NCBI GenBank assembly: GCA_964540725.1
Contig: CAZINU010000001.1
Location: forward strand, 159,419 to 223,418
From: an uncultured Candidatus Peribacteria bacterium
GTDB taxonomy: Bacteria > Patescibacteriota > Gracilibacteria > BD1-5 > UBA2023
Reading direction: 5' to 3'
DNA: 64,000 bases
Positions 34,027 to 63,306 of this stretch are shown piece after piece (position 1 is the first letter of the stretch; each line of letters starts with the position of its first letter). Below the pieces are notes generated by a model that worked only from the letters and a program-made list of their open reading frames with translations, was not told the DNA's origin and ran no database searches. The position numbers were made by a program, and so were the translations under genes.

Positions 34027-36147
34027 ATGACTAAGAAAACCCTCGCCTCCGTCCTCGCCATCTTCATCGTTTCCTCGGGCGGATGGTACGCGTATTTCGC
34101 TTCGAAGAAAGAAAACGCCCGTCCGATTCTTCCGACCGAGACGGATGCGGTCGCCGTTTTTACCGGAACCGTCCGTTCGACCATCCAAGGGGTCGGAACC
34201 GTCACGACGTCTTCCACTCAGACCCTCCAATTCAACTCGAACGGGAAAATCGTGGCATGGAACGTCGCCCCCGGAAATCACGTCAAAAAGGGGCAGGTAT
34301 TGGCCGAAGTCGATTCGCGCGACGTCGATAATGACATCCGAAACGCGACGCTCTCGCTCAAGAACGCCGAACTTTCGTACGAGAAGCTGTTTTCGAGCGT
34401 CAAAGATTCCCAAATCGCGTCGGCCGAGGCCTCCATCGCCCAAGCCGAACGCTCCATTGCCTCCGCTCCCGCGGAAATCGAAAACCTCGAAATGGAGCGT
34501 GTTGCGAAGGTCTCGGACCAGCGTGCTTCCATCGCCCAAACCGAACGTTCCGTCGAACTTGCCCGCGAAAAACTCGCGATTCTCGAAAGCGACGTTTCCT
34601 ACGTGAAGGCGTCATCCGAAGATACGGTCGCGAAGTCCGGTACCGATCTCGCGTATATTCTTTCGAGCGCTTCGATCAGTGCCGACAACCAACTTTCCGA
34701 CGCCCGTTCGTTCGTTCGGGAAATGGAATCTTCGGTTCTGAATCTGGACGAACCGAACGCGGTACCATACGAGTTTTCGGCCAAGGACGCTTCGAAGGGG
34801 ACCGCGGCCCTCGGGTCGTTCGAAGCGTTCCGGGGAAAGATTCCCTCGTACGCGGCGTCGCTCGATTCGGCCGATTTTTCCAGCACCGGCGGCGTACTTG
34901 CCTTCCTTTCCGAACGCGAGGCCTTCGCAAGCCTGGGAATCGCTTCGGCCGACGCCCTTTCCCGGGCGCTCGAGGCGAGCTTGCCAGTGGGAAACCTTCC
35001 GCAATCCACGATCAATTCCCTCGCGAGCACCGCCGCGTCGTACCGATCGAAATTCACGTCGGTCCTCTCCGATGCCGCTTCGGTTCGGAAGCAAATCGCC
35101 GCGCTGGAAGATCCGGCCCTCGTTCGGCAGAGTGCGGACAATACGGTCGCGAACAAGAACCAGTCGATTCTCGAACAGCGCTCTTCGATTGCTTCGCTCG
35201 AATCGACCCTCGCTTCCCAGCGAGCCGCGCTCTCGAAGCTCGAAAGCGATTATGAGATAAAGATCCGGCAAAAACGCGAAAGCGTGCTTTCGCTCGAGGA
35301 AAGCCTGAAAACCGCCCGCCTGAACCTTCAAGATTTGAAGGACGGTCCCACCGATACCGAAATCGCGAGCGCGAAGAATCAGATCGAGCAGGCGAAAATA
35401 TCCCTGGAAAAAACGAGGAAGAAAAAGGAAGATTTTCAAATTATCGCCGGTTTCGACGGAATCGTGACGGCCAGCAATGGGAAAGTGGGGGAAATTTCCA
35501 CGAATTCGAATTCGTCCGACGCCGCCGCCACGAGCGTAACGGTTGAAATTCCGGGTCTCTACGAAATCAGCGTGCTGGTCGATCAGCTCGACGTCGTGAA
35601 GGTCCGGGCCGGACAAAAAACGGAGATCGCGTTCGACTCGTACCCGGGACAATCGTTTCTCGGGAAAGTTTCCGAAGTCGATCCGACCCCCGTAACGAGC
35701 CAAGGAGTCGTTTCGTACCGGGCGAAAATCCTTTTCCAATCGGACGAGCTCCGAATTTATAACAGCATGACGGCGAACGTCGCCATCGTAACCGAAGAGC
35801 GGCAAGATGCCACGCTCGTTCCGACCGTCGCCATTTCGGCGGATTCCGAGGGAAAAAAGACGGTCCGCATATGGAAAAACGGACGCTCGGTCGTCAGAGA
35901 GGTCGAGACGGGGCTTTCCGAAGGGGCGAATACCGAAATACTTTCCGGCGTTACGATTGGTGACCGCGTGGCAACGGCCGCGTTCAATCTTTCGAAAACG
36001 AATGGAAATTCCGGATTTTCCCTCTTCAATCTCGGTCGTCGGTCGTCTTCGACGTCGTCGGGATCTCGAAACGGCACGTCTTCTTCGTCTTCGTCCCAAC
36101 GGTCCGCCCCTTCGGGCGGCGAGATGGGCCCTCCGCCCGGAATGTAG
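34027..36147 (+). CDS. HlyD/MacA-type periplasmic adaptor (membrane fusion protein) with very long coiled coil
   Basis: It has an N-terminal TM, a barrel-sandwich segment (NGKIVAWNVAPGNHVKKGQVLAEVD), long coiled coils, a second lipoyl half (IIAGFDGIVT) and a beta-barrel C-terminus. Confidence 0.8.
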   Translation: MTKKTLASVLAIFIVSSGGWYAYFASKKENARPILPTETDAVAVFTGTVRSTIQGVGTVTTSSTQTLQFNSNGKIVAWNVAPGNHVKKGQVLAEVDSRDVDNDIRNATLSLKNAELSYEKLFSSVKDSQIASAEASIAQAERSIASAPAEIENLEMERVAKVSDQRASIAQTERSVELAREKLAILESDVSYVKASSEDTVAKSGTDLAYILSSASISADNQLSDARSFVREMESSVLNLDEPNAVPYEFSAKDASKGTAALGSFEAFRGKIPSYAASLDSADFSSTGGVLAFLSEREAFASLGIASADALSRALEASLPVGNLPQSTINSLASTAASYRSKFTSVLSDAASVRKQIAALEDPALVRQSADNTVANKNQSILEQRSSIASLESTLASQRAALSKLESDYEIKIRQKRESVLSLEESLKTARLNLQDLKDGPTDTEIASAKNQIEQAKISLEKTRKKKEDFQIIAGFDGIVTASNGKVGEISTNSNSSDAAATSVTVEIPGLYEISVLVDQLDVVKVRAGQKTEIAFDSYPGQSFLGKVSEVDPTPVTSQGVVSYRAKILFQSDELRIYNSMTANVAIVTEERQDATLVPTVAISADSEGKKTVRIWKNGRSVVREVETGLSEGANTEILSGVTIGDRVATAAFNLSKTNGNSGFSLFNLGRRSSSTSSGSRNGTSSSSSSQRSAPSGGEMGPPPGM

Positions 36148-36166
36148 TTTCCTTCCTTCGTACCGC

Positions 36167-36844
36167 ATGCTCGAACTTCGTGACATCGTCAAAACCTACC
36201 GCATGGGCGGGGAAGATTTGAACGTGCTGAAAAAGGTCTCCGTCAAGGTCGGCGACGGCGAATTCGTTGCCATCATGGGGCCGTCGGGGTCCGGAAAATC
36301 GACTCTTATGAACATTATCGGCCTCCTCGACGTTCCGAGTTCCGGCGAATACCGGCTCGACGGCGTTCCGGTTGAAAAGCTTTCGGGCGACGAACAATCG
36401 GAGTTCCGAGGAAAGAAGGTGGGATTCGTCTTTCAGGGGTACAACCTCATCCCAAGGCTCTCGGCCATCGAACAGGTCATGCTCCCGCTCGCGTACCAAG
36501 GGGTAGGAAGATTCGAACGCCGCAAGCGTGCCGAAGCCGCCCTCGAGCGCGTGGGGCTTTCCGATAAAAAGGACAACAAGCCAAACGAACTCTCCGGAGG
36601 ACAGCAGCAGCGCGTCGCCATTGCCCGCGCCATCGTCGGAAACCCGTCGATCATTCTGGCGGACGAACCGACGGGGGCGCTCGACTCCAAGACGGGGTCG
36701 GAAATCTTGGATATCTTCGAGAGCGTCCATAAAGAGGGGAAAACCATCGTGCTCATTACCCACGAAAGCGAAATCGCGGCCCGCGCCAAGCGCGTCATCC
36801 ACGTGAAAGACGGGAGGATCGAGTCGGACGAACGGGTTCGGTAA
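36167..36844 (+). CDS. MacB/LolD-type ABC transporter ATP-binding protein
   Basis: The product has [26 protein letters not shown] and [11 protein letters not shown]. Confidence 0.9.
   Translation: MLELRDIVKTYRMGGEDLNVLKKVSVKVGDGEFVAIMGPSGSGKSTLMNIIGLLDVPSSGEYRLDGVPVEKLSGDEQSEFRGKKVGFVFQGYNLIPRLSAIEQVMLPLAYQGVGRFERRKRAEAALERVGLSDKKDNKPNELSGGQQQRVAIARAIVGNPSIILADEPTGALDSKTGSEILDIFESVHKEGKTIVLITHESEIAARAKRVIHVKDGRIESDERVR
36581..36837 (+). repeat. 257-bp direct repeat, copy 1 (3' end of the ABC ATPase gene)
   Basis: It is identical to 40841-41097 except for 2 mismatches (36583 and 36601). The offset is 4260 bp. Confidence 0.9.
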
Positions 36845-38571: not shown

Positions 38572-40530
38572 ATGTTTTTTCAAACCGCGCGTGATTTTCT
38601 CAATCGGGAGTCTTTTCGGATTATCGCCAGTTCGATCAGGAAAGGAAACGGCGTATTCCTTCTCGGGCTTGGCATTTCCATTGTGAGCGCCGCAACGTCC
38701 GTCGTGCTTCCGTATCTGTCGAAGCTGGAAATCGACCAGATGGTGGCAAAGCGGGGATTCCAGGCATTCTGAACGTCTTTTGAGGCGTTCGAGGTCTTTG
38801 CCGCAATCCTTGCGGCGTATTTTATCGTCTCCTTTTTGGAGAAAATCATTACCGAAAGTCTCGGGGATTTTCTTCGGGAACGGGAGGAGATATTCCGGCA
38901 CGAAACCGACCTTTTCCTGTACGAACGAATTGCCCGAATGGAGATCGGCCTCACGCTTTCTTCGCGTTTTCAGGACGTTATGCGCTACGTTGACAGTAAA
39001 TTGGACGAAATCGTGAATACCGTGGTCGGAACTCCGAAGAAACTGTTGGAAATCACCGTACGCCTCGCCGGAATGTGAAGCATTCTCGCGATATTCGATT
39101 GGAAAACCCTCGCGGTAGTCGCCGTTGGCGGATTCGCCACTTTTCTCTTGGGCAGACTGGAATTTCGGAACAATCACCGAATGGGGTACGATCAGGAGCT
39201 CCGAGATCTGGAACATCTCGTTTTTTCCGTCCCGTGGGAACTTCGGAAGAATCTCGCGGCACTTTCCCAGAACGGGGCGGTGCATTCCGTTCTCGCCACC
39301 CTCACGCGGAGCATTCACGAAAAACAGAGACTTGCGCGCCCGTATCAGAGAAAAAAAGTATTTATCGGTTCCGGAATTTTTCTCGTCGATTCGGCGGTTT
39401 CGATCCTCATTAAGGCGGGAGTCGGGTATTTCGTTTTTCAAGGAACGCTCTCGGTAGGGATGGTCACGATGTCGGTATTGTACGCAGACCGTCTTGCGTC
39501 CGCGATACGGCAGGCCACGGAGGCGTATTTCGACATTCGGAAAACGCGATTCGACTTTTCTTTTTTCGAGGAGTTCCTGAAAATATCGGCTCCCGTTGGT
39601 TCGAAGAGGGGTTTTGGAAGTATCGGATCGGGAATATCGTTTCGGAACGTATCCTTTTCTTATCCGGATTCGCGCGAACTTGAGCGACCCTTCTTCGAGC
39701 TGATCGAGAGACAGCTTAAAATCATGAAAGCCATGGGGGATTATCCGTGGCAAATCAATCGATTGCAGGACGAATTGCTTAAATTCGAAAACGGAAAAGG
39801 CGAATCGGAGGGTTCCAACATGCCGGTGTTCGAAAATTTCCATTTCGAATTCGTTCCCGGGAACGTGTACGGAATCGTCGGAAAGAACGGAGCCGGAAAA
39901 ACGACTCTCGTGAATCTCATCTCGGGATTTTTTCACTCCTACGGCGGTGAAATCCTGTTCGACGGGAAAAATATCCGCGACTGGACGAACGAAGGTTTTT
40001 CGAACGTCATTTCCGTCATATCGCAAATACCCTATACGTACGGCGTGTACGGGGATTCTACGGTTCGGAACAACCTGCTTCTCGGAGTGGACCGAAAGGT
40101 TTCGGACGAAGAGCTTTTCTTGCTGTTGCACGACTTTCGGTTGGATCGGAAAATTCGGAAGTCACCCAAGGGAATTGATTCCGAAATCGAAAAGGATATA
40201 CATTTTTCCTGAGGGGAACGCCAGATTCTTTCCATAATTCGCACGCTTCTTCAAAATCGTCCGATCGTCGTGTTGGACGAGGGAACGAATCAACTCGATG
40301 CCGAAAACGAAGCCGTCGTCATGGAACGCCTCCTTGCGGAGCGTAAGGGAAAGATCATTCTTTTCGTCACGCACCGCATGAATACGATATCGCGCGCGGA
40401 CGAGGTGCTCTGCGTCGAAAACGGGCGAATCGTGGCTCATGGGAAACCGAAGGATCTTCTCGAGGCGGACGATAATCCGTACGCGAAATTCTACCGGGCG
40501 CAAATCCTGCACGAGAAAACGGGCGATTAA
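38572..40530 (+). CDS. Fused permease-ATPase ABC exporter (MsbA-like), three in-frame TGAs
   Basis: Four fragments share one frame, with TGAs at 38770, 39076 and 40210. Walker A is GKNGAGKTT. The signature is restored as HFS-[G]-GERQ. Walker B is [11 protein letters not shown]. Confidence 0.85.
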
Positions 40531-40567
40531 CGTGGGGCCCGTACGTCCGCAAGAACGAAGCCGTCAC

Positions 40568-40736
40568 GGGGGGAATCGATTATCGTTCCTCGGAACCCCT
40601 TGCGACGGCGAGCGCCATTCAAAGCACTCGCAACCCGGACGCCCGCTTCGCGGGTCGCCGGGGTCGCCGCGGCTTCGATTCTCCTCGGATCCTCCTAAGA
40701 ACAAAAAAACGCCCCGCTTCCGCGGAGCATTTTTTG
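40568..40736 (+). ncRNA. Structured element A (candidate ncRNA) with terminator; paralogue of element B
   Basis: A 12-bp closing helix pairs GGGGGGAATCGA (40568) with TCGATTCTCCTC (40675). The 20-nt core CGTTCCTCGGAACCCCTTGC is identical to element B. Internal GC hairpins are present. A hairpin plus T6 lies at 40711-40736. Confidence 0.35.
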
Positions 40737-40840: not shown

Positions 40841-41101
40841 CCGAACGAACTCTCCGGAGGGCAGCAGCAGCGCGTCGCCATTGCCCGCGCCATCGTCGGA
40901 AACCCGTCGATCATTCTGGCGGACGAACCGACGGGGGCGCTCGACTCCAAGACGGGGTCGGAAATCTTGGATATCTTCGAGAGCGTCCATAAAGAGGGGA
41001 AAACCATCGTGCTCATTACCCACGAAAGCGAAATCGCGGCCCGCGCCAAGCGCGTCATCCACGTGAAAGACGGGAGGATCGAGTCGGACGAACGGGTGTA
41101 G
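40841..41101 (+). pseudogene. 3' fragment (copy 2) of the MacB-type ABC ATPase gene
   Basis: It encodes only [16 protein letters not shown]...[10 protein letters not shown] without a Walker A. It is near-identical to 36581-36837 and ends in TAG. Confidence 0.85.
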
Positions 41102-41550: not shown

Positions 41551-41823
41551 CGGGGGAAAAAACGGTGCGGTTCGGAGGGTGGGGAATTTTTAAGAACTTG
41601 GGCGAACGGGTCGGTTCGGAAAGAATGTCATCGACGTCCTTCGGGCGATAATAGGCGATTTTCGAAAAAATCCAGTCGTGACGGGTTTTTTTCGAAAATC
41701 GCCATCGTGAACCTTCGGAATTTCGATTGTTGGCACTTTTCGTGCTCCTTTCTACGATTTTCCGCAACAGAAAAAGCCTCCCAAGGGAATTGAGAGGCCT
41801 TTTCCAGTACTGATGATAATGTT

Positions 41824-41898
41824 TGGTACCCCCAAGGAGAATCGAACTCCTGTTACCACCGTGAGAGGGTGGTGTCCTAGCCGCTAGACGATGAGGGC
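41824..41898 (-). tRNA. tRNA-Glu (anticodon CUC), CCA encoded
   Basis: Hand-folded cloverleaf: acceptor GCCCTCA/TGGGGGT, the D-arm TCGTCTAGCGGCTAGGACA typical of tRNA-Glu, anticodon stem CCACC/GGTGG with loop CTCTCAC, and T-arm AGGAG-TTCGATT-CTCCT. Confidence 0.88.
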
Positions 41899-51372: not shown

Positions 51373-51447
51373 TGGGGTATCGCCAAGCGGTAAGGCAGCG
51401 GATTTTGACTCCGCCACGCGGGGGTTCGAATCCCTCTACCCCAGCCA
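51373..51447 (+). tRNA. tRNA-Gln (anticodon UUG), CCA encoded
   Basis: TGGGGTATCGCCAAGCGGTAAGGCA matches the tRNA-Gln 5' half, including the U1-A72 pair. The anticodon stem is GCGGA/TCCGC with loop TTTTGAC. The T-arm is GGGGG-TTCGAAT-CCCTC. The acceptor 3' strand is TACCCCA, followed by G-CCA. Confidence 0.9.
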
Positions 51448-51462
51448 TAAGGGTCATAAACG

Positions 51463-51492
51463 CAAAGGGAAGCCGAAAACGGCTTCCCTTTG
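51463..51492. terminator. 13-bp hairpin between tRNA-Gln and the recombinase gene
   Basis: CAAAGGGAAGCCG-aaaa-CGGCTTCCCTTTG. It lies inside the still-open recombinase reading frame. Confidence 0.5.
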
Positions 51493-51555
51493 CCGTTATC
51501 GGAGTTCGAACTTTTTTTCCCGCCCCCCTTCTTCTTTTTGGACCTCGTTAGAACT

Positions 51556-53216
51556 TCACGATGGAAAATGCCTTGGAATAGCGGTTTCAGGCGGAAGTTC
51601 ACTATGCGCCCCCGATGAACGATGACGTAGTCGAAAATCGCTTTCGCCACTCATCGTTTTTTTCGTGGCGGGAAGTTTTTGAAATTGGTAGCGAGCTCTC
51701 TCGCGTAGGATAATGGTTCGTTTATCATCTCCGCGTTCCTTTCGGATACCGCGGGAAGGTTGGCGAGACGGTTCTTCGTCTCTTCGATTTCGACTTCCAG
51801 CTTGGATAACTGGTCGCGGATTTTTTCCTTCAGGAAAGGAAGCGTTTCCTCTACGTAGACCTTTAAGTTCCGTTGGCTTTCCCCTTCGAGCCTTCCGAGT
51901 TTTTTCCGAAGCAGGTTTCCGACGTCTTCTTGGAGTTTCCCTTCGGATTCGAGTCGAATCTCGATTGCCGTTTTGAGAAGTTTCATTTCTTCTTCGTCGA
52001 AGACCAGTTTCGATATGATTTCCTCGTTCAGAAGATTTTCCAGTGTGATGCCCGATATGAACTCGTTGTCGCAAGCCCCCTTTTTATTACAGGAGCAACG
52101 GTAGTATTGGTAGGATTTCTCCTTCTTTTTCTTGGTTTCCGCGGTAAACGGACGGAGCGATCAATTTTTCACGGCCGTTTCGTAATCCGTTCCGTCTCCC
52201 ATTTGGCACGGACAACGGACGATTCCTTTCCAAAGATACACTTCGTTTCATTCCCCCCATCCGCCTTTCGGTCAGCATTTCTTGCCTTCTCGAACGGCCC
52301 GGCATTGGTCGAACAGCCGTTTCGATATCAGGGGTACGAACGTTCCGAGTTCCCGTATCCGTTCGGTATAATCGACGACGACGCTTCATTCGCCGATTTC
52401 CATGAACGGGTATTTTTCTCGCAAGTACTCCCTTGCTTCGTTGTCGGGCATCTTATATTCGATTGCCACCCGACCCCAGTACAATTCCTGCGACAACATC
52501 TTTTCCACGTCCTTTTTCGTGAATTCCTCGATAATCTCGGGTTTTTCTCCGGAACGGTATTTCCGAAATCCGAGGCCGTTCAGTTTTTCTGCCAAGCTTT
52601 CGAAGCTGTACTCCCCCGTGGAATACAGTTCGAAACAGTTTATGACGGCCTCGTTTATCCGATGGTTCGTGTCGATTTCTACGCGCGTATATTTTCCTCT
52701 TCCATTCCGTACGTATCATCTCGGCACTTGTCAGGAAATCGTTCCTTTCTCACGAATGGCACTATCGAGGTTCATGACGCCACCGCGGGATTTCTCCATG
52801 CTTTCGAAGACCGCTTCGTTTATGGCGTCCGCAAGTGCTTTCTTTCCCGACAGCACGGAACAATCGAAGCCTTCCCGTATCGAATATACCTTAACGACGT
52901 TCCCGACCACGTACCTTTTCAGAACGTCTCATTCTTCGAAGTTTCTCGCCAAACGCGAAGCCATGTAGACGAAAACCCCGTCGATTCTTTCGCCTTCGCC
53001 GAGAACGTTCCTTTTCCGTATCTCTTCCAGCATTTCCGTAAACTCGTCCCGACATCCAGCGACGAAGCTCGATTTGTTGTCCTTGAAAACTTTCACGATT
53101 TCGAATCAGCGCTTTCGGCATTCCGTGGTCAGCGCGTCGATTTGAAAGTCGATCGAAACCGAACGGTCCTTGTGTTTCAGACTGCTCCTTCTGGCGTAAA
53201 TGAAGACTTTTTCCAT
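51556..53216 (-). CDS. Large serine recombinase (integrase), 9 in-frame TGAs, 3' end undefined
   Basis: MEKVFIYARRSS...SIDFQ (catalytic Ser) and YMASRLARN mark the resolvase domain. The recombinase domain has PLISKRLFDQCRAV. The zinc ribbon is VRCPCQMGDG...YQYYRCSC. A coiled coil follows, then the C-terminal AIFDYVIVHRGRIVNFRL. There is no in-frame TAA or TAG until 51021, so the frame crosses tRNA-Gln antisense. Confidence 0.85.
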
Positions 53217-53735
53217 TGCGGGCGTGGGTTATGGAACCGTCGGCTTATTACCGTCTCCGAATCTTGAAATCGACGATGGTTCCGCTCGAATCCGTCACCG
53301 TTTCGAGTTCGTCCGTCGGACCGAAATTCATGAAGTACCGGAAAAGGTCTTTTCGGTACTTCCACAGGTAGAGCGCGAGGAGTCCGAAGGCTTGGTTCGG
53401 AAAGTGGTCTTTCGCTTCGGATATTGTCGGTTCGGTCCAATTCCTTTTCGAAGCGTGTTTTCATAAGGAATCGAGAGCGTGCTTGGAAGCTCTCGGAAGG
53501 TTCGGCAGGTTGGCCATGAACCCCCTTACGGCTTCGGAAAGGTTTTCGGCGATGCCGATGGCTTCGGCGGTCGAAATCTCGTTTCAGCGGTACCGGTAGC
53601 CCTTTCCGTCGGGAGAAAGGAGTTTTTTCAAAATCTGCTCGATTTCGCGTTCTTTCCTCGCGTCGTACGGTTGGTTCGCCATAGGATTTCGGGTTAACCC
53701 GTAAAAGATACCGAAAAAATCCGAAACCGAAAATC

Positions 53736-54497
53736 CTACAGCCATTCTGCGACTTTTTTGAAAGAACGATTCAAGGCTTCCTTGCGTTCTTCGTCGCTCC
53801 TTCCGTCGTCTTCCACGAATCACGGAACGAACAGCACGGCGATTATCGGGAAAACGAAGAATCAGGCGGAGAAGGCTTCGAACCATTCGGGCGTGGTACC
53901 GATTCCGTCGAATATCTTTACGGGAACCATAAAAAGAGCGAAAAACGCGAACCAGTGCTTCTTCAAAAGCGTGGTGATGACGAGTATCGCGTAAAGGAAT
54001 CCGAGACCGCTCAAAAGCGATGCCATCGCCACGAAGAAGAGAACGAATCATCGGACGTTCGACGGAATCTTCGAAAGGATTGCGTCGGCGGTTTTGATCG
54101 CTTCGCAAATCCAAGCGAGAACTTCTATCCAAAGGGGGTATCGCGTTTCCTTCGGTCGCGGTTTTTCCACGGTCGGTTTCGGTTCCGACGTCCGCCGAAC
54201 CGAAAGGTTCGATTTGAGGCTTTCGTATTCTTCCATCATCGCAACGAAATCGGCCCCCTTTCATCAGCGGTCTGGGTGGTATTTCATCGCGAGTTTGCGT
54301 TTTTGCCCTTCGAGCAAGGCTTCTTCGCCGACGAAGTACCGGTCTTTGGGGAAGTGTTTCATACGCGCGGTCGGGTAATGGAAAAACCTTTCCGCGATTG
54401 TATCTGGGAAAAATGTCTTGTCCGGTGCTTTAGTGCGGAGATTGCGCGGTACCCGAGTCGATACGCGGAAAACGCCCAGACACGCTCGAACACGCAT
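53736..54497 (-). CDS. J-domain (DnaJ-like) membrane protein
   Basis: KRKLAMKYHPDR-[TGA][TGA]-KGADFVAMMEEYESL restores HPD-x-GG (54261-54266). Hydrophobic helices follow. There are 5 in-frame TGAs in total. The stop is TAG at 53736. Confidence 0.75.
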
Positions 54498-54515
54498 CGG
54501 CTTTTTTCGTCATTT

Positions 54516-55211
54516 TTACGACCTTTCCGATTCCAAAACCCCTCGAACGGTTTCCAAGGTGAGGAGTCCGAAGTTTTCGGGAAAGTACGTTTTCCGATTC
54601 TGGTCTTCGGGGTCTATTCGGAACAGTCCGAGGTTTTCCGTTTTGGAATACAGGATTCGCGATTGCCACTGCTTCATTCATAGGGCGAAAACCTTTCGGA
54701 CGGAGAAGTCTTTCCTTTCCAAGAGTTCCAGCATTCAGGCGAAAACCCTTTCCGATTCGTCCGCATACCCTTTTCCGACGGTTTCGGAACTCCCGGTTTC
54801 GAGCGAAAGGCAAGGAGCCGAGAGCGTTCGGTATCAGGGTTTCACGGCTCCGTCGGACGACTTGCCCGTAAAAAGGAGCACGCACGCGGGAATCTTCGTT
54901 CCGTTCACGCTCGCGGACGTGAAGGAAACGTTCGGATACCCGTCTCACGGAAGGAGGCGGTTCGCCATTTTCCTGAAATGTTCGAGAACGGTTTTCAATA
55001 TCGGCAGTGCCAAGAGCGCGGAAGAAACGGTTTTCGGATCCACTTTCAGTTCGAAGACGACGAAAGATTGCGAACGTACTATCCGTCCGACCATCCGGTC
55101 GGGAGCGAGCGTTTCGTGGAAAGAGAAGAACGCGGGAATTTTCGAAGATTCCACGGCCCTTTCCAACGCGTCGCGGAGCGTCGTCCTATCTTCCATCGCC
55201 GATTTCGACAA
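54516..55211 (-). CDS. Hypothetical island protein (4 in-frame TGAs)
   Basis: ORF 54945-55211 continues in frame through TGAs at 54945, 54834, 54735 and 54678 to TAA at 54516. The composition looks protein-like, but I recognised no motif. Confidence 0.5.
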
Positions 55212-55671
55212 GCCTCGCCATCTCCGCGCGTATCTGTTCCAATTCCTCCGTTTTCTTTTCTTCGCTCATCCCGAGCTCTTCGAGCTTCATTCGGAGCTTG
55301 TCGGATTTCAAATCGGAATCGAAAGGGTTGGAAGAATCCGAAGAGAACGAATCGAGTTCGGCTTTGCGTATTTCGTTTTCGAGTTCGCGTTGGCGGATGG
55401 CGATGGTTTTCAACGCGTGGACGGTAGCCCGTTCCTTTTCGGCGAGTTTCCTGTATTCGGTTTCGGCCTTGGAAAGCGGTTTGCCTTGTCGTGATTCCGA
55501 CCGTTCCGAAGTTTTGGAAGAAGACGGCGTGTGCCAGAATGCGAAGAACGCGACGAGCGCGAGAACCGCTATGAGTCCGAAAGAGTCGCCGTCCGTCGGA
55601 CTTTCCTTCTTGGGTATCGGCTTCGGAGATTCCGTCGCCGTGGCGTACGCCGTTCGGTAAAGTGCGTCCAT
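55186..55671 (-). CDS. Hypothetical TM plus coiled-coil island protein
   Basis: It starts MDALYRT, has a TM helix (FGLIAVLALVAFFAFW) and then an E/K/L-rich coiled coil. The stop is TAG. Confidence 0.5.
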   Translation of the reverse strand: MDALYRTAYATATESPKPIPKKESPTDGDSFGLIAVLALVAFFAFWHTPSSSKTSERSESRQGKPLSKAETEYRKLAEKERATVHALKTIAIRQRELENEIRKAELDSFSSDSSNPFDSDLKSDKLRMKLEELGMSEEKKTEELEQIRAEMARLVEIGDGR

Positions 55672-55740
55672 AGTAAGGGAAAAATGAAGGTGTAATCGGC
55701 GTTTTCTGCGCCTCGTTATCTCCAATGGATGCCACGGACG

Positions 55741-55835
55741 TTTTCTCAAATCTTTTTCCGACTTTTTTCGCGTTTCGACACGCGACCGCACGCCGAAGCG
55801 GAAAAGTCGGATTTTTGAAAAAAGATTTGAGAAAA
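55741..55835. repeat. Long imperfect inverted repeat inside the island
   Basis: TTTTCTCAAATCTTTTT..CCGACTTTT (55741-55766) matches AAAAGTCGG..AAAAAGATTTGAGAAAA (55802-55835). The two arms flank a GC-rich 35-nt spacer. Confidence 0.5.
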
Positions 55836-56357
55836 CGGATCGCTTTTCGAATTGGATGGAAGTTCGGCTCCGTCCGACGGCTTACCAATTCATTTTTTTC
55901 GACATGAAGAAAACTACCGAAGAAACCACGTGAGGATTCTATTTCCACTCCGACGATTTCGAACCGTCGAGAAAGCTCGAAGACGGCGATTCCTTCGCGC
56001 ACTACCGTTTTCATTTCCTTTGCCGGTACGCGCTCGACGTGCGGGGAATCGAGGATTTTTCCTTCACGGTTTGAGAATTCGTGGAAAACGCCAAGGCGAA
56101 GAAGATTTGAAATCCCGAAAAACTCTCGGCGTCGCTTCTCGACGGTTGCGTACCCGAAAACCCGTACCTTTCCTTCTCTATGGAAAACGGGGTTCCGAAG
56201 ATTTCCGTTTCACAGCCGAACTGAAGGGGAAGCATAGGCGAAAACCTCGTCGTGCTCGATTCGGCGACTTGCTCCGCGGTTTCGAAAGACGCCGAAGCGT
56301 TCAAGTTCCTTTGTTCGGTCGTGAAGAACTGCCGAGGTTAGCGAACCGATTCGAAAA

Positions 56358-56396
56358 GAAAAATCCCGAACCGTAGTCAACGGTTCGGGATTTTTT
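56358..56396. terminator. Bidirectional terminator inside the island
   Basis: ATCCCGAACCG-tagtcaa-CGGTTCGGGAT has A-runs and T-runs on both sides. Confidence 0.6.
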
Positions 56397-56743
56397 GAAA
56401 AAGTCGGTTTTTTTCTTGAGAAAACGCGGAACCCATCCATTTCGCAAGACAACGGCTGACCGAGTACAAACGGTCGTCCCAGAGCGGTGAGTCCCCGAGG
56501 ATATAAAACCGCGCAAATGGGTCGCGATGAGCCGAAACGCGAGGCATTCCTTGGCGAACGCAGTCCGATATACGGAACGGGTTCGAACTTCTCCGTTTTG
56601 GCGAAAGCCAAACGAGTGATAAGTCCCTAACGGGATGAGTGGTAGCGACGAGCGTTTTTTCGTGCTCGCTCTTCTTTTTGTCGGTTTTGAAAGAGCGGGC
56701 ACGCCCCACGAATCGAATCCTCAATCGGAACAGGCTACAAAAA

Positions 56744-57982
56744 CTACCGCTCTCTATCTTTCAATAAGACTATGAAATCTTCAAGATTCATGAGCCAGCC
56801 CTTCTGCCTGTCCGTATAGGTTTCATGAAGTTTCTTCGGGAGGATGAGTTGAAGATTTTCACTTCGCATCTCGTCCGTTTGAGATTCGCTGATTGCTGTT
56901 TGAAGAGTGATGAGATGTTTTTTCTCGATTCGTTTCGCTTCGGCTAAAACCTGTCTCCATCTGTCTTTACAGGTTGTCTTCGCGCCCAGCATTGTCAGTT
57001 TACTTATTGGAAAAGCGGGATTTCTGTATTCGTCGATTCATGGAAAGAGGAAATCCGGTTTGGAGCGGTTTTCCGTTATTTCAGTTCTTGAATGCCTGAT
57101 GGATCTGCTTTTGAAAAGATGTTCTATATGGTTTTCCAAACTTGCTCAAGCGCGACTTTTCCTTCTGTTTTGAACATGGAGCGAGAAACCTATGAATCCT
57201 TCAACGTCGGCAATGCCCCGACCATCCATGAATCATTGGGAAAGCCTGTCAGCCAGATGATAACGCTCCAAGGTTCTAAAAAGTACCTCCTCACGTTCCA
57301 TCCACGCCATAAGGACGGAATCTGAATCATCCAAGGCATCGACGCCTTTCAAAGTTTGCCGAGCGTATTCGGAAAAGATTTTCGTACTTGGAAACGAGTC
57401 TTTTCAAAAACGAGAAAGCATATCTTCCAAGAATGTCTCGTCTTCCGTCTCCACCTGAAATCCTATCGCTTCCAAAATTGTTTTTGCTGCGAACTCGATT
57501 CGAACCTGTCAGGTTTCAATTTCGCTCCTGACTGAAAATCAAGGATGGGCTGACGTCGTTAGGCCAAAGAGCCATTCTAATTGGCTGGCGATAGTCGAAT
57601 CGTTTTCGGCAATAATGATCAACAGCCGTCAGTTCGGTAATTTGCCGATGATTAGTAAGTCGCCTTCATTGGCGCATTCAGAGACGCTGGTTGTCGGAAA
57701 ATAGAGCCTATATTCAGAACGTCAGGTTTTCTCGAAACTTTTAGCCCTTGGGTCATACCAAGTCACCGTTCATTCATCCGAGACGGCTTCGTCGTCAAAA
57801 TCGTTGAGGTACAGAAAATGCGCTTCGAAATACTTCTTTTCTTGCTCCTCTCACAACATCGTTTTAAGTCCTTTTACCCCATTGAACTCGTGCTGATTCG
57901 AATTCGCGGGATTCGCTTCGACTGCGCTCAATCGCTTTGCAGCGATGCTCTCAAAATATTTGGAAAGATACCCGTTTTCCAT
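56744..57982 (-). CDS. Type II restriction endonuclease, EcoRII-like (10 in-frame TGAs)
   Basis: Hand-joined 412-aa product. The N-terminus is MENGYLSKYFESIAAKRLSAVEANPANSNQHEFNG. The C-terminus is PDFLFP...GAKTTCKDRWRQVLAEAKRIEKKHLITLQTAISESQTDEM. The family call is from memory of EcoRII-type sequences. The ATG directly follows the methylase TAA. Confidence 0.75.
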
Positions 57983-59263
57983 TTATGCCGTAGTTATCAA
58001 AGAAGGAGCGTCCTCTTTCATTTTAGCCAACAAGGGCGAATAAAGCGATAGCTGTTGATTTTTTATACCCATGATATGGGGTTTCATTGCTCGCGCTGCT
58101 TCGCTCATAACTGGAACGACGACGGAGTTTCCGAATTGCCTATAAGCTTGGGTGTCGGAGACCGGGATTTTGAAAGAATCGGGAAATCACATCAGACGCG
58201 CGCATTCACGGGGTGTAAGTCGCCTTGGATTCTTATTTTTACCCCTTGAGACGAGTATTTCCGAACCATCTTTGTAATATCGGGCGGAGAGAGTTCGACT
58301 TGTGTCATTCGGCGTCACCAATCCGAATCAGAACCCATTTCACTTCGCCTTGTGCTTCTCGGCGTATCATTGTAAGTATGCCCACAGCTTGTCTGATAGG
58401 GTGAACTTCGATTGAACTTTTCATTTGGAACCGTGAATGTACCTATTTCCATCATGTTCAATTGGCAATTCCGTTCCGTCCTCTGGATGAAGGATGAAGT
58501 TCATCTTCGGTGCCGATAATGGAATGTTGAAGGAGTCCCATGAAAAATCAGTCTTCTCCCTGAATCCAACTATCAGTATTCGTTCCCGATGTTGTGGAAC
58601 CCAAGATTTTCCATCTACGACCTTCCAATGTACGTCATAACCCAATTCATCTCGTAATGTTTGTAAGATTACGCGGAACGTATTGCCTTTATCATGGGAA
58701 ACAAGATTTTTTACGTTTTCCAGCAAGAAAGCCGAAGGGCGTTTTTCTGCGATAATTCTTGCGACATCAAAAAAAAGAGTTCATTGGGTGGTACATTCGA
58801 AACCATGAGGACGACCAAGGGAGTTCTTTTTACTTACCCCAGCGATAGAGAATGGCTGACAAGGGAAACCTGCCAGCAATACATCATGATTCGGTATATC
58901 TTTCGCTTCAACTTTGGTAATATCTCACTCCACCTTGTGATCCTCCCCGAAGTTCTCGACGTAAGTTTTTACTGACCAAGGACTCCATTCGCTCGTAAAC
59001 ACGCACTTTCCGCCTGCTTGTTCGAAACCAAGGCGAATGCCACCGATTCAGGCGAAGAGGTCTATGAACGTGAAATCTTGTCCGCCATTTGTTCAGTTCT
59101 TGGAGGAAAGGGCTTCTTTAAGGGCTGGGATTATCAAGGATGGGGTGGGGATTTCACCTTTTTCCCAACGTCGAATGGTACGAGAGTTCCTTCATAAAAT
59201 GTTCGCGATTTCTCATTGAGAAAAGCGTAATCGGGCCTTTGCGAGCATTTCTTGCGGACTCAT
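57983..59263 (-). CDS. DNA cytosine-5 methyltransferase with N-terminal HTH (11 in-frame TGAs)
   Basis: An Xre-like HTH (SQ-[G]-EIANIL-[G][13 protein letters not shown]) precedes the methylase motifs. These are motif I FIDLFA-[G]-IGG, motif [10 protein letters not shown], motif VI ENV, motif [24 protein letters not shown]-[G]-FPD and QFGNSV. Confidence 0.9.
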
Positions 59264-59345: not shown

Positions 59346-59501
59346 AAAACCATATGTAATTTATAAGCGAAACACAATTTATTTGTGGATTTACTCGTCT
59401 CAAAGAAGAAAAGCCTCCGTTAATCTCGCTAAATCGTCAGGCTTACAGCCTTTCATAAAGAGTTCTAACACTGCCTCCTCGGGTCAGCCATTCTCGAATC
59501 A

Positions 59502-59706
59502 AAAATCCCCCGAAAGGGGGATTTGTTGTTCGAGAAGGCGGGGTAGAGGGATTCGAAGCCGCCGCCTTCCGTCTCGTCCGCCGGAGGCGGCGAGGCGGTA
59601 CGGAGCCACTATTCGTGGCTCCGTAGGCAAGGGGTTCCGAGGAACGAGCGTCCGGCGCCGCATCGCGGCCCGGCGCGACATTCCGAGGAAAGAATCCCTC
59701 TACCCC
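59502..59706 (-). ncRNA. Structured element B (candidate ncRNA) with terminator; paralogue of element A
   Basis: On the minus strand the 5' arm GGGGTAGAGGGATTC (59706-59692) pairs with the 3' arm GAATCCCTCTACCCC inside 59540-59557. Internal hairpins are present, for example ACGGAGCCAC-gaata-GTGGCTCCGT. The shared 20-nt core is at 59627-59646. An AAATCCCCC-tttc-GGGGGATTTTT terminator lies at 59503-59524. Confidence 0.35.
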
Positions 59707-59936
59707 TCCGCAAGTTTCCAACGAACGGGGGCGTATCGTTCCAACATTCCTCTATCCCCAGTACGCGGAGGGGTTTCTTCCCGAAAGCCACCGTATCGAA
59801 TCCTTCCAAATTTCGATTTGCTTTTTCTTTCGGAATCCATAGAGTCTTCGGGCTCAAAAAGGCGGGAAGGGTTTTTCGCCTGTTGATTCGGAGTGATTTT
59901 TCCATATACTCCCCACCGTCATTTTTCATTCGTACC

Positions 59937-60248
59937 ATGCTCGCAGTCGTAGAAATCGGAGGAAAGCAATACACCGTCAAAGCCGGTGACGTCATCGAAG
60001 TCGACAATCAGAACGCCGAAGTCGGCGCGAAGATTACGGCCGTTCCCCTTCTCGTCGCGAAGGAAGACGGTTCTGACGTCAAGGTCGGCACCCCGTCCGT
60101 TGAAGGATCCGAAGTTACCCTCAAGGTTCTCGAGAACTTCCAGGGCGACAAGATTCGCGTATTCAAGATGAAGTCCAAAAAGCGCTATTCCCGAACCCGG
60201 GGTTTCCGCGCGAGCCTCACGAAGCTTGAAGTCGTAAAAATCGCGTAA
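59937..60248 (+). CDS. rplU: Ribosomal protein L21
   Basis: MLAVVEIGGKQYTVKAGDVIEVD...KIRVFKMKSKKRYSRTRGFRASLTKLEV. Confidence 0.95.
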   Translation: MLAVVEIGGKQYTVKAGDVIEVDNQNAEVGAKITAVPLLVAKEDGSDVKVGTPSVEGSEVTLKVLENFQGDKIRVFKMKSKKRYSRTRGFRASLTKLEVVKIA

Positions 60249-60326
60249 AGGAGGGGGCCCGTCCGCCGCTTTCGCGATTTTCCAAAATCGTTCGCGGCCG
60301 ACGGATTTATTCCTAAACGGCAGTGA

Positions 60327-61388
60327 ATGCGTTTCAAGGTCAACGTTCGGGCCCGTCTCGAACGTCACGTACGCAATAGCCACGCCCTTCAAAAGAGCGG
60401 CGTCTACCAAATCGTTCGCAGGTTCCGGCTCCTTACGGTACTGGTTACCATCCTGCTTCCCGTATATCCGTCCTTCGGCGCGTTCGTCCTTCCCGACGAA
60501 ACGACCGTCGGCGATTATGACGAATCCACCATTATCGCCGCTTACCAGGAAGACACTTCCGAGACGATGTTCTCGCAGGATTCCGGGTTCGTAAAGCCTT
60601 CGATAGCCATTCGAAACGGTCGCGATACCGAAGGGGTCAACCGGCTTTTACCGTACGAGGTCGAACCCGGCGACAGCCTTTCCGCCATCGCCGCGAAGTT
60701 CGGCGTGAGCGTCAATTCGGTCATATGGGCGAACGATTTCTCGAAGAATCCCGTTTTGAAACCCGGGCAGGTCGTCATGATTCCTCCGGTCACGGGTGTC
60801 GTCCATACCGTCGCATCCGGCGAAACCGTCGACGCGCTGGCGTCCAAGTACAAAATCGACGCTTCCAAAATCCGCAAGCAGAACGGAATCTCCGCGACGG
60901 GCGGGCTCGTTGCTGGGCAAACCGTCATCATTCCCGGGGGCGTCCGGGTCGTTCCTGTCATAAAAAGGGAAGAGAAACCCAAGCTCGTTGCCAAGACTCT
61001 TCCGAAAAGCATCGCGCCGGCCAAGACTCCGGGGAAGAAGAGTTATTCCGTAAAATATAACGGAAACGGCAAGGGGTTCGTGTGGGGAAATTGTACCTAC
61101 TACGTCGCGACCCATAAGAACGTCACGTGGCGCGGAAACGCGAACCAGTGGCTCCGGAACGCCGCTGCGGCTGGGGTTCCAACCGGAAAGGTTCCGGCAG
61201 CGGGGGCAATCGTGTCCTTTTCCGGACGGGGATACAATCCGTACTACGGGCACGTCGGCATCGTCAGCGGCGTCGACGGGAACGATATCATCGTGAAGGA
61301 TATGAACTACCGCCGTCTCGGCGAAGTGACGATCCGTCGAGTATCGAAGAGCGATCCCACCATTCGGGGATACATCTACGCCGATTAG
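60327..61388 (+). CDS. Peptidoglycan hydrolase: two LysM repeats plus C-terminal CHAP domain
   Basis: The LysM repeats are YEVEPGDSLSAIAAKFGVSVNSVIWAN and HTVASGETVDALASKYKIDASKIRKQN. The CHAP motifs are GNCTYYVA...WRGNANQW...GHVGIV. Confidence 0.85.
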   Translation: MRFKVNVRARLERHVRNSHALQKSGVYQIVRRFRLLTVLVTILLPVYPSFGAFVLPDETTVGDYDESTIIAAYQEDTSETMFSQDSGFVKPSIAIRNGRDTEGVNRLLPYEVEPGDSLSAIAAKFGVSVNSVIWANDFSKNPVLKPGQVVMIPPVTGVVHTVASGETVDALASKYKIDASKIRKQNGISATGGLVAGQTVIIPGGVRVVPVIKREEKPKLVAKTLPKSIAPAKTPGKKSYSVKYNGNGKGFVWGNCTYYVATHKNVTWRGNANQWLRNAAAAGVPTGKVPAAGAIVSFSGRGYNPYYGHVGIVSGVDGNDIIVKDMNYRRLGEVTIRRVSKSDPTIRGYIYAD

Positions 61389-61401
61389 TTCGGGAATTCT
61401 G

Positions 61402-61435
61402 AAAAATGCCCCACGGGAACGACGGGGCATTTTTC
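61402..61435 (+). terminator. Rho-independent terminator
   Basis: ATGCCCC-acgggaacgac-GGGGCAT is followed by T5. Confidence 0.55.
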
Positions 61436-61499
61436 AGTCTCGTCTGCCCATTCCCGTGGGCGGACGTTTCGGGATATTTCGCTTCAAGAAGGGTGCGAC

Positions 61500-62339
61500 C
61501 TATTTTCCCGACTGCCACAGGAACGCCTCGAACGTGTTTTCGAGAAGCATCGCGACGGTCATCGGGCCGACTCCGCCGGGAACGGGGGTAATGTCGGCGA
61601 TTCGGACGATTCCGTCGAAATCGGCATCGCCTACGAGTTTTCCATCCGAGGTCCGGTTAATGCCGACGTCGATGACGGTCGCCCCCGGTCGGACCATGTC
61701 GGGCTTCAGAAGCCCGGGGCTTCCCGCCGCCATGATCACGACGTCGGCGTTTTTCGTGTGTTCCGACAGATCGCGCGTTTTCGAGTGGCAGACAGTGACC
61801 GTCGCTCCGGCATTCGCCAGAAGGAGCGCGAGAGGCTTGCCGACGATGTTTCCGTTTCCCACGACCGTTACGTCCTTTCATTCTAGAAGGATTCCGTAAT
61901 GGGAAAGGAGCCGGAGGATTCCCTTCGGGGTACAGGGAACGAAACCGCTTTGACGGTTAAGGAAAATTCCGGACACGCTCGCCTGAGTGAATCCGTCGAC
62001 GTCCTTTTCGGGCGAAATCGCGTCGACGACGGCATTTCGGTCCACGTGGGCGGGAAGGGGGAGTTGGACGATGATCGCATGGGTCCCCGAGTCGTTGTTC
62101 CGATCCCGAACGACATCGAGCACGTTTTTCGTCGACGCGTTTTCGGAAAGTTCGACGAGTTCGAATTCCATGCCGACTTCCTCGCAAGCCCGACGTTTTT
62201 GTCGCACGTACGCCAGGCTTGCCGGATTCTCGCCCACGAGGACTACCGAGAGTTTCGGGCGTCCGTCGCAACGCGAAACGCGCTCCGAAAGCGAATTTCG
62301 AATTTCGGTCGCGAGGGTACGTCCTTCCAATATGGCCAT
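61500..62339 (-). CDS. folD: Bifunctional methylenetetrahydrofolate dehydrogenase/cyclohydrolase FolD
   Basis: Two fragments share a frame. The TGA at 61878 restores ILLE-[G][17 protein letters not shown]. The product also has VQLPLP and [14 protein letters not shown]. Confidence 0.9.
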
Positions 62340-62482
62340 AGGTTCGGTCGGGGTTCGGAAACGGAAAAACGGATGCGTGAGTATATCGAATCGGCCCGAT
62401 CGCGCAATTCTCGGGTCGACGTCGAGGCTTCGCGGGCAGCCGAAACATCGGAAAAGAATTGCTCCGGGATCGCGAAAAAAGC

Positions 62483-63196
62483 TTATGGAACCGTCGGATT
62501 CCGAACGTTCAGGCTTCCCGTTCGGAGATCGAGGAAAACGTCCTGGCTCCGGTATTTTTCACGAATGCCCAGCTCTTGCTTGTATCCAAGATTGAGTTTG
62601 AGCCGTACGACGTTCGCGAATTGCGGATCGATACAGCCCGGAATGGTCGGACACGACATCGTTCGGGCCCACATTTCGGTTCCGCGGACGAAGATGCCGA
62701 CGGTCGAACCGGTATATCCGATCGGATACCGCTCAAAGTTCGTTCCCGTCTCGTCCGACAATCGGAAAACCAACGCGTCGTTTTTGTCGTACCCCGAAAT
62801 CGACGCGATTCGGAAACGGGAATTCGGTTCTCCGAACATGGGCGCGGGAACGCTCGTTTCGTCGACGGTTCCGCAAACGTTCGATATCCGCCCCTGATCG
62901 TCGAAGGAAACGGAAGAGCCGGTAATGGCAAGGGGCGATACGGCGATAACGAAATCGGGACATCCTCCGGTAATGGTCGTACGTCCCGTAACGGCATTCG
63001 ATTTCGCGAAACGGATAATTGATTCGAATTTTTGCACGAACCCCCGAAGTTTCTCGATTTCGGTCTGCCGCTCGAAGTCGAAATTCCCCACCGTGACCGC
63101 CAGGATGCCGATAATCGCGATTACGACCATGAGTTCCGTGAGGGTGAAGGCGCGGCTTGAAACCATCCGGATGCGGTCGGAAAGGATTTTTTTCAT
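62483..63196 (-). CDS. Type IV pilin-like protein (prepilin N-terminal methylation motif)
   Basis: MKKILSDRIRMVSSRAFTLTELMVVIAIIGILAV carries the class III signal (G/A-FTLxE) plus a hydrophobic helix. Confidence 0.8.
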   Translation of the reverse strand: MKKILSDRIRMVSSRAFTLTELMVVIAIIGILAVTVGNFDFERQTEIEKLRGFVQKFESIIRFAKSNAVTGRTTITGGCPDFVIAVSPLAITGSSVSFDDQGRISNVCGTVDETSVPAPMFGEPNSRFRIASISGYDKNDALVFRLSDETGTNFERYPIGYTGSTVGIFVRGTEMWARTMSCPTIPGCIDPQFANVVRLKLNLGYKQELGIREKYRSQDVFLDLRTGSLNVRNPTVP

Positions 63197-63306
63197 GCGG
63201 AACGTTTGCAAATATGCCGATGGTATGGTATATTCGAGGGCAAGTCTTACGAAGTATACCGCTTCGGGGCCCCTCCGCAATATTATTTTCTTTCATTCCT
63301 TTTCGT

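Follow-up and report, generated by a model that had tools for sequence, protein, structure and literature searches.

An unclassified structured element in two diverged copies beside tRNA genes of a code-25 bacterium, one copy joined to a serine-recombinase attachment site

Introduction

Two structured elements in the genome of an uncultured Candidatus Peribacteria bacterium raise the question of how the closing helix of a presumptive RNA can come to read like the 3' half of the nearest tRNA gene. We analysed a stretch of 64,000 nt (contig CAZINU010000001.1, positions 159,419 to 223,418; here the window), in which an initial annotation had described the two elements, A and B, and had proposed that their 5' arms are specificity arms, antisense to the tRNA and following the integration target with the logic of guide or bridge RNAs. 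Our tentative answer is that a single unclassified structured element, of which A and B are diverged copies, is located at the outer (attR) end of tRNA-linked insertions, and that the likeness to the tRNA arises from the position of the element rather than from a guiding function.

Results

Shared architecture of elements A and B

The 20-nt core CGTTCCTCGGAACCCCTTGC occurs exactly twice in the window, once in A on the plus strand and once in B on the minus strand, as initially annotated; in a fuzzy search of the window, the chance expectation was ~0.03 matches even with up to three mismatches. Two further motifs are common to both copies, i.e. GCGGCTTCGAWTC, which had correctly been placed just before the 3' arm and lies 65 nt (A) or 64 nt (B) after the core, and GCGGCTTCGA (40669-40678 in A, 59562-59553 in B). 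The parts follow each other in the same order in both copies: the closing helix P1, the hairpin P2 with CCCCUUGC, P3 around P4 and P5, the invariant GCGGCUUCGA leading into the second strand of P1, and a terminator. P2 is a sequence-invariant hairpin (GUUC-CUCG-GAAC).

The closing helices pair in both copies although their sequences differ. P1 of A, with the arms CGGGGGGAAUCGA and UCGAUUCUCCUCG, comprises 13 bp including two G-U pairs plus three outer bp; P1 of B comprises 15 perfect bp plus two outer bp. In a two-sequence alignment, all 14 aligned column pairs of P1 were paired in both copies, and nine of these 14 differed between the copies, six on both sides and three on one side. When the partner strand was slid by one column, pairing fell from 100% to 51-61%. 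The observed value for compensatory changes was reached by 6 of 500 shuffles, in a comparison of only two sequences. The interior helices did not fall in register in the MAFFT alignment of the two sequences. P3 appears to covary (GCGAC/GUCGC in A versus UUGCCU/AGGCGG in B), and P4 and P5 occupy corresponding positions with unrelated sequences. P4 has 5+2 bp in A and 10 bp in B, while P5 has 5+2+5 bp with a 3' bulged U in A and 3+4+5 bp with a 3' bulged A in B; thus, P5 has the same geometry in both copies, with a 5-bp top, a triloop and a single-base bulge on the 3' side. In A, a 2-bp CC/GG contact also joins the core and the GCGGC motif. The core has stayed 100% identical against helices that are saturated with change, which argues for constraint on both copies.

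Compared with shuffled sequences, the folding z-scores were -4.7 (A) and -10.2 (B) with the terminators included, and -3.9 (A) and -7.9 (B) with the terminators excluded. The rho-independent terminator noticed earlier after each 3' arm was present ~14-24 nt downstream and is bidirectional in both copies (A-run upstream, GC-rich stem, T-run). Moreover, each element is convergent with its respective tRNA gene, in agreement with the inverted orientation described before. In total, we conclude from sequences and predicted folds that A and B are truly paralogous, that they represent a single structured element without a known class, and that this element family is real and known from this window only.

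The initial annotation had recognised no known RNA family, and we arrived at the same result. A gathering-threshold scan of the whole window with Rfam 15 and scans of both loci at E<=10 returned only tRNAs and terminator-like noise; the best scores, 12-25 bits against cut-offs of 40-100, were located on the terminators. Neither ARAGORN nor the Rfam models detected a tRNA or transfer-messenger RNA (tmRNA) at A or B. Retron msr-msd RNA and OMEGA (IscB/TnpB) RNA were considered and rejected; their cognate genes were not found among the island open reading frames (ORFs) tested. A literature search returned nothing relevant on RNA-guided serine recombinases, non-coding RNAs of Gracilibacteria or T-loop attachment (att) sites of large serine recombinases (LSR).

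Element B and the tRNA-Gln attachment site

The 15-nt sequence GAATCCCTCTACCCC is present three times, i.e. in the tRNA-Gln gene (51428-51442, plus strand), in the 3' arm of B (59554-59540, minus strand) and at 59692-59706 on the plus strand. The third copy, which the initial annotation had missed, repeats the 3' half of tRNA-Gln in direct orientation 8.26 kb downstream and is the complement of the B 5' arm. The DNA between the two repeats has a GC content of 0.49, compared with roughly 0.54-0.64 in the window (average ~57%), and the gene next to tRNA-Gln encodes an LSR of the Resolvase plus Recombinase family: its homologues carry PF00239 and PF07508, and S11 lies in the motif YARRSS. Among the island ORFs tested, Pfam matched only this LSR, an EcoRII-type endonuclease and a C5 cytosine methyltransferase, and the other ORFs had no match. 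Thus, the surroundings of B have what is found at LSR-mediated, tRNA-integrating islands, namely a recombinase with Resolvase and Recombinase domains, a tRNA direct repeat at the far end and relatives at equivalent sites. Together, the predicted genes and repeats show that the T-loop of tRNA-Gln is the integration site of an 8.26-kb island, which carries an LSR and a restriction-modification system of EcoRII type.

On this evidence, the B 5' arm is the att core of ordinary site-specific integration and lends no support to an antisense specificity arm. Since the 5' arm is the att repeat, any 3' arm paired to it is bound to resemble the tRNA. The direct repeat at B corresponds to the simple att-site duplication that the initial annotation had itself set against its target-tracking interpretation, and the way in which the arms track the local tRNA appears best explained if the att core is part of a helix whose pairing is maintained.

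The identity block in the window begins at the GA of TTC/GA/ATCC, and the reconstructed attP, CCGAGGAAA/GA/ATCCCTC, has modest dyad symmetry about GA (5 of 10 arm positions). Serine recombinases use dyad symmetry at the crossover; because the attP dyad is only modest, it is mainly the edge of the identity block that places the crossover at GA.

The island bears on the LSR reading frame as well. There is no TAA or TAG in the LSR ORF before the tRNA/att site, and in the integrated state the ORF has 731 aa and runs antisense through tRNA-Gln to 51021. In the reconstructed circular form, the ORF has 623 aa and ends at a TAG (59611-59609) in the P4 loop of B; the LSR relatives have 594-628 aa, close to the circular form.

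Relative to A, B contains a 45-nt insert flanked by the 10-nt direct repeat TTCCTCGGAA. The insert converts P2 into a long hairpin, the top of which (3+4+5 bp, triloop, 3' bulges) has the P5 geometry of both copies. The GCGGC upstream of TTCGA in B is common to A and absent from tRNA-Glu; we therefore regard it as a family feature with a chance likeness to GGGGG. The sole public sequence recovered for the region of B is a Logan assembly from run SRR5011273, which is 100% identical to 59668-63648 of the window and breaks inside the inserted hairpin. The cause of this break may be a palindrome that stopped the assembly, or heterogeneity of the population at the edge of the island.

Relatives of the B island

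A collection of 5.8 billion proteins contained eight homologues of the LSR, and none was found in IMG/VR. In all seven relative loci that were fetched, the LSR 3' end either adjoins a convergent tRNA gene or lies within it (two loci each with Gln-UUG, Gln-CUG and Ser-GCU, one with Trp-CCA), which shows that LSRs can form a clade dedicated to tRNA T-loops. A query with a backbone protein gave one further locus (L026), which has neither a tRNA nor a far end. The far end is visible in only one relative, L011, the LSR of which is 43% identical to the LSR of the window over 98% of its length and has the same architecture. Its att repeat, AATCCCCGACCCACCGCCA, has 19 nt, starts at the equivalent T-loop position and includes the CCA. 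As detailed below, no B-like element was detected at this far end. L011 has integrated without the element; therefore, B is dispensable for integration and would be an optional module outside the common recombination machinery of the family.

These observations bear directly on the guide or bridge RNA logic, in which a 5' arm that is antisense to the 3' half of the tRNA programs the recombinase or another factor to its target. The arms do resemble the nearby tRNA in both copies, B lies at one end of the island, next to a recombinase gene, and GAACCCC in the core complements GGGGTTC of the tRNA-Gln T-arm, giving 22 nt of split complementarity with the 5' arm. Nevertheless, we consider this explanation highly improbable: the recombinase is not an IS110-type enzyme but an LSR, which has DNA-recognition domains of its own; IS110-, IscB- and TnpB-type proteins and reverse transcriptase were all absent among the island ORFs tested; the arms are paired to each other and not displayed in loops; the att repeat fully explains the 5' arm; the LSR of L011 integrates at the equivalent T-loop position without the element; and A has no recombinase. 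In total, the identity of the LSR, the mutually paired arms and the optional nature of B remove the basis for this reading.

Several observations were made on the relatives in passing. A backbone of small genes without Pfam matches (53300-56500) is common to L009, L010, L011 and L012, and one of these genes has an HPD J-domain-like motif and membrane segments. The cargo varies: the island of the window carries EcoRII-type restriction-modification, L012 a type I methylase and L009 an ISL3 transposase. The att core of L011 can pair weakly with an inverted partner (564-637; GGTG..GGGGAT / ATCCCC..CACC, 6+4 bp), after which a T-run follows; its z-score of -0.5 to -1.3 is not significant, and it may be a minimal counterpart of P1 and the terminator. 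About 60 nt further out, L011 is homologous to the window sequence 3' of the B terminator. The sequence conserved at the L011 far end (660-742) corresponds to a short sequence or ORF (VLELFMKG...) at 59471-59391 (minus strand) right after the B terminator, which may be a small regulator or directionality factor.

Element A and its surroundings

The 3' arm of A is identical to tRNA-Glu at 12 of 12 nt, as initially annotated, and at 14 of 15 when extended; the complement of the 5' arm matches at 10 of 13. The further claim that A copies the T-loop/acceptor 3' strand did not hold: eight of the 12 matching bases form the generic T-loop motif TTCGAWTC, which is also conserved in the family, including B, and the acceptor strand of tRNA-Glu is not matched by A. 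The two arms of A differ from the tRNA-Glu segment TCGATTCTCCTTG at four positions; all four differences are transitions and all preserve pairing on the plus strand, with one change from A-U to G-C and two from A-U to G-U. For a P1 that started out as a perfect duplex derived from the tRNA, an outcome in which all changes preserve pairing has a neutral chance of 0.024, which mildly supports ancestry from tRNA-Glu and selection for pairing on the plus strand. Moreover, the geometry is as in B, with the terminator and 3' arm toward tRNA-Glu and the 5' arm distal.

A follows a gene for an ABC exporter, which is the probable source of transcription into A. As a companion of this exporter, A was rejected: three homologous exporter loci had no A-like element downstream. 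The 4.26-kb segment bracketed by two copies of a 257-nt direct repeat is of lower GC content, contains an ORF of unknown function, a rhodanese gene, the ABC exporter gene, A and the A terminator, and has no recombinase gene. The stop contexts of the two repeat copies differ (ERVR-TAA versus ERV-TAG). The repeat offers an alternative account of the DNA around A. Either the 4.26-kb segment would have inserted in the ATPase gene and brought A with it, or the orphan ATPase fragment would lie inside an old tRNA-Glu island. Thus, the link between A and tRNA-Glu is weaker than that between B and tRNA-Gln, and the tRNA linkage of A is not demonstrable.

The setting of A brings in a further explanation, according to which the two copies represent a generic type of structured 3' RNA module (a 3' untranslated region or terminator-associated element, or a small RNA) that is carried on accessory DNA and unrelated to recombination; B would merely adjoin an att site, and the likeness of A to tRNA-Glu would combine a T-loop-like family motif with chance. 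The location of A straight after the exporter stop codon and before a terminator fits this explanation, as do the presence of TTCGAWTC in B and most tRNAs and the bounding of the surroundings of A by the 257-nt repeat and not by a tRNA repeat. We nonetheless consider it rather unlikely. Orientation and order relative to the nearest tRNA are the same in both copies, and the match of A extends to 14 of 15, with six of seven positions matching beyond the shared 8-mer (chance ~0.001 per tRNA in a hand calculation). Moreover, the 5' strand of P1 in B coincides exactly with the att repeat and does not lie beside it, and homologues of the ABC exporter have no such element downstream.

Discussion

Observations weighing against a tRNA-linked RNA element

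We tentatively favour two diverged copies of one element at the outer ends of tRNA-linked insertions, and the element is most likely an RNA read on the strand chosen in the initial annotation, as far as the sequences tell. A number of observations weigh against this, and we list them here together.

The family has only two members. Further copies had been expected in related DNA, and exact-motif scans of viral, genome and metagenome collections gave none; such scans miss diverged relatives, and the source genome is in neither large collection. The two-block pattern had three chance matches in viral contigs (IMG/VR) and five in genome contigs (one per GTDB species), the latter in coding DNA of unrelated phyla. 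A 19-mer search of JGI metagenome contigs found one coding gene five times and a single contig, L015, considered below. BLAST against plasmids and phages gave no further copy. Fuzzy searches of all the fetched loci were likewise negative for further copies. Promoter prediction upstream of A and B (in the host flank for B) found none. Past the att repeat, the far end of L011 has no core motif, no significant structure and no B-like element. Both strands of A and B fold about equally well, B slightly better on the other strand, and folding energy gives no strand assignment for either copy.

At B, the 18 nt of identity to tRNA-Gln described earlier were found, and they extend 3 nt beyond the helix; allowing two indels, the match is 27 of 30 from the variable loop to C75. 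This overshoot agrees with an inverted copy made at the DNA level at least as well as with selection for pairing. Moreover, the attR copy at B ends at tRNA position 71, without A72-G73-CCA, whereas in a displaced but intact tRNA end one would expect the discriminator and CCA. Given the 3'-arm overshoot and the stop of attR at position 71, the inverted copy may have originated at the DNA level.

At A, the direct repeat of tRNA-Glu is imperfect (10 of 13 only), and no recombinase remnant was found in 36.8-41.9 kb by tblastx and an LSR profile against six-frame translations; thus, an LSR with a tRNA-Glu direct repeat at the far end, as at B, was not found here. The 257-nt repeat, unrelated to the tRNA, lies between A and tRNA-Glu and bounds the DNA of A. 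The claim that both elements sit at the far edge of tRNA-linked DNA therefore holds for B, exactly at the island edge, and is not demonstrable for A; the expected co-occurrence with serine-recombinase islands is likewise seen at B only.

DNA sites and tRNA-like RNAs

The equal folding of both strands and the bidirectional terminators are also what would be seen if A and B were DNA-level recombination sites and not RNAs. Read on the antisense strand, the interior would lie between two copies of a conserved end followed by GA and a tRNA 3' half, with the ends GCGGCTTC/GA/... and ...TTCCGAGGAA(N)/GA/..., so that each element would consist of two attR-like junctions in inverted orientation, and GGTTCC-GA-GGAAC in the core would represent a half-site palindrome of a serine recombinase, centred on the crossover dinucleotide. 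Such an arrangement could have been left behind by nested or inverted recombination, or it could be a pseudo-att pair or an invertible segment. It would agree with the crossover being simplest at the T-loop GA, the left edge of att identity, with the resemblance of the P arm TTTCCTC to P' ATCCCTC and to the core start GTTCCTC, with TTCCTCGGAA occurring twice in B, and with the 27/30 resemblance of the B 3' arm region to a whole attB/attL site. By contrast, the structure of P3, P4 and P5 is kept despite differing sequence, for which protein-binding DNA has no need, and on one strand every mismatch in P1 of A is a G-U. The known att sites of LSRs are compact (~40-50 bp). The inverted copies here are 95-137 bp apart; moreover, L011 integrates with a simple site, and A has no recombinase in cis. 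Altogether, we regard DNA sites as an unlikely explanation.

The identity of the B helix to the acceptor and T stems of a tRNA, followed by GCC as in G73-C74-C75, invites the suggestion that A and B are tRNA-like capped RNAs recognised or trimmed by RNase P, RNase Z or the CCA-adding enzyme. P1 of B would be the acceptor/T-stem minihelix of tRNA-Gln, with GGGGUA as positions 2-7 and the 3' strand as positions 57-71. This is very doubtful: besides the negative ARAGORN and Rfam results, a T-arm is impossible, given that GCGGC does not pair with CCCUC or CUCCU, the equivalent of pair 1-72 is an A-G mismatch, and the acceptor strand is no longer matched by A.

A working model

Under the favoured reading, with A and B as copies of one element at the outer ends of insertions, the recombination core would lie inside P1, and a helix that is kept paired would cause its 3' strand to read like the tRNA 3' half. 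The arms would follow the target through the position of the element and would not choose it. A would be an older copy of a B-type arrangement beside tRNA-Glu, the recombinase of which has since been lost, and its helix would have drifted since then only by pairing-preserving transitions. We infer the function of the element only from this arrangement. When the island is circularised, B would lie directly downstream of the LSR ORF and would supply a stop codon, a stable 3' structure and a terminator, so that the recombinase message would have a proper end only in the circular state. In the integrated island, the element and its two-way terminator would insulate the island edge. A may form the 3' end of the ABC exporter transcript, which would end at the terminator.

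A stronger version of this idea, which we think quite improbable, is that the element is an RNA for recombination control in tRNA-integrating LSR islands, with a closing helix that is rewritten for each new tRNA target. P1 would then be a double-stranded copy of the target half-site, and the RNA would mimic the att site or a tRNA minihelix and set recombinase expression or directionality according to the integrated or circular state; at the extreme, it would contribute to target choice.

Comparison with known systems

The B island resembles tRNA-inserting islands and prophages in that the recombinase gene adjoins the tRNA, the 3' part of the tRNA is repeated at the far end, the GC content is lower, cargo (here restriction-modification) is carried and relatives are found at other tRNAs. 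It differs in its enzyme, an LSR; tRNA targeting is more usual for tyrosine integrases. Moreover, its far-end repeat is one strand of a 15-bp helix within a large structured element, has a second, inverted copy at a distance of 137 bp, and is without discriminator and CCA.

With the IS110 bridge RNA and the IS1111 seekRNA, A and B share a structured, non-coding character, a size of ~150-200 nt, a place at the element end beside a recombinase gene, target-related sequence and a transcript context that partly changes on circularisation. In contrast, Pfam identified an LSR and no DEDD/IS110 recombinase at the B island, the target-related segments are mutually paired and do not lie in internal loops, there is no donor-binding loop, and in one relative a recombinase of this family does without the element.

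Similarity to tRNA-like domains (the tRNA-like domain of tmRNA, viral tRNA-like structures, mascRNA, Y RNA/YrlA) lies in a helix identical to the acceptor/T-stem stack and in the T-loop-like motif GGCUUCGAAUC; unlike these domains, A and B have no equivalent of a T-arm or D-arm and no Rfam or ARAGORN match, and the T-loop bases are partly in the helix. Finally, integron attC sites, REP/BIME and invertible segments likewise have inverted repeats around a short interior, GC-rich imperfect hairpins with conserved bulges, a location on mobile DNA and two strands that both fold. Here, there is no integron integrase or RAYT among the ORFs tested, the interior helices appear to covary, and the inverted repeats differ between the copies and follow the local tRNA.

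In our view, what is new here is an unclassified structured element fused to an LSR att site, within a clade of tRNA-T-loop islands and in a code-25 bacterium. If A and B are functional RNAs, they would represent a new RNA class, found in a lineage that has been little studied and that uses UGA for glycine; the element would be physically fused to the attachment site of a serine recombinase, and this fusion could couple recombinase expression to the integrated or excised state. The case also calls for caution in scanning genomes, in that a helix that appears to copy a tRNA can arise simply from an att repeat within a helix kept paired, and no RNA guidance is required.

Feature coordinates and minor observations

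Table 1. Coordinates in the window of elements A and B, their parts and neighbouring features
Feature	Position	Strand	Remarks
Element A	40563-40690	+	core, P1-P5, GCGGCTTCGA motif
A, P1	40567-40579 / 40675-40687	+	outer pairs 40563-65 / 40688-90
A, P2	40585-40596	+	hairpin GUUC-CUCG-GAAC; core 40584-40603
A, P3	40602-06 / 40663-67	+
A, P4	40608-40631	+
A, P5	40634-40662	+
Intrinsic terminator 3' of A	40704-40735	both	bidirectional; A-run, GC hairpin, T-run
Element B	59537-59711	-	core, P1-P5, GCGGCTTCGA motif
B, P1	59706-59692 / 59554-59540	-	outer GG/CC
B, extended hairpin	59690-59635	-	holds the 45-nt insert; core 59646-59627
B, P3	59630-25 / 59567-62	-
B, P4	59624-59600	-
B, P5	59598-59569	-
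Intrinsic terminator 3' of B	59500-59524	both	bidirectional
tRNA-Glu(CUC)	41824-41898	-	segment TCGATTCTCCTTG resembles both A arms
tRNA-Gln(UUG), attL	51373-51447	+	att core at 51428-51442
attR core GAATCCCTCTACCCC	59692-59706	+	direct repeat of tRNA-Gln 3' half, complement of B 5' arm
Reconstructed attP			...CCGAGGAAA/GAATCCCTCTACCCC/AGCCATAAGG...
Reconstructed attB			...GGGGGTTC/GAATCCCTCTACCCC/TCCGCAAG...
LSR gene	51448-53216	-	9 in-frame TGA (Gly) codons
Island interior	53248-59263	-	backbone genes, endonuclease, methyltransferase
EcoRII-type endonuclease	56744-57982	-	Pfam
C5 cytosine methyltransferase	57983-59263	-	Pfam
257-nt direct repeat, copy 1	36581-36837	+	3' end of intact MacB/LolD-type ABC ATPase gene (ORF 35807-36844)
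257-nt direct repeat, copy 2	40841-41097	+	99% identity; orphan ATPase 3' fragment, 105 nt past A terminator
ABC exporter gene	38572-40530	+	3 in-frame TGA (Gly) codons; ends 36 nt 5' of A P1

Genetic code 25 is known from Gracilibacteria and Absconditabacteria. Long ORFs in the window emerge only when TGA is taken as sense, and lists of ORFs made with translation table 11 are fragmented and misleading for this DNA. In the exporter gene, the ABC signature reads FS-TGA-GERQ at ~40300, with an in-frame TGA at a conserved glycine position. These features fit UGA being read as glycine by both the organism and the island, in agreement with code 25.

The contig L015 (JACLAC010005086.1) has the sole non-coding-looking match to the 19-mer, at 147-165, with the flanks CTGCAAGGG...CCCTTGCAG. 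GGTTCGAAAAT lies ~62 nt downstream of the core; the contig has a GC content of 41% and is without the P4 and P5 hairpins. This match is probably due to chance.

ARAGORN reported only two tRNA genes in the window, tRNA-Glu(CUC) and tRNA-Gln(UUG), and each has a strong hairpin just 3' of it: that of tRNA-Glu at 41654-41703 has 24-nt arms (92%), and that of tRNA-Gln at 51456-51499 has 20-nt arms (90%) and lies inside the island at its tRNA-proximal end. Both hairpins are probably terminators.

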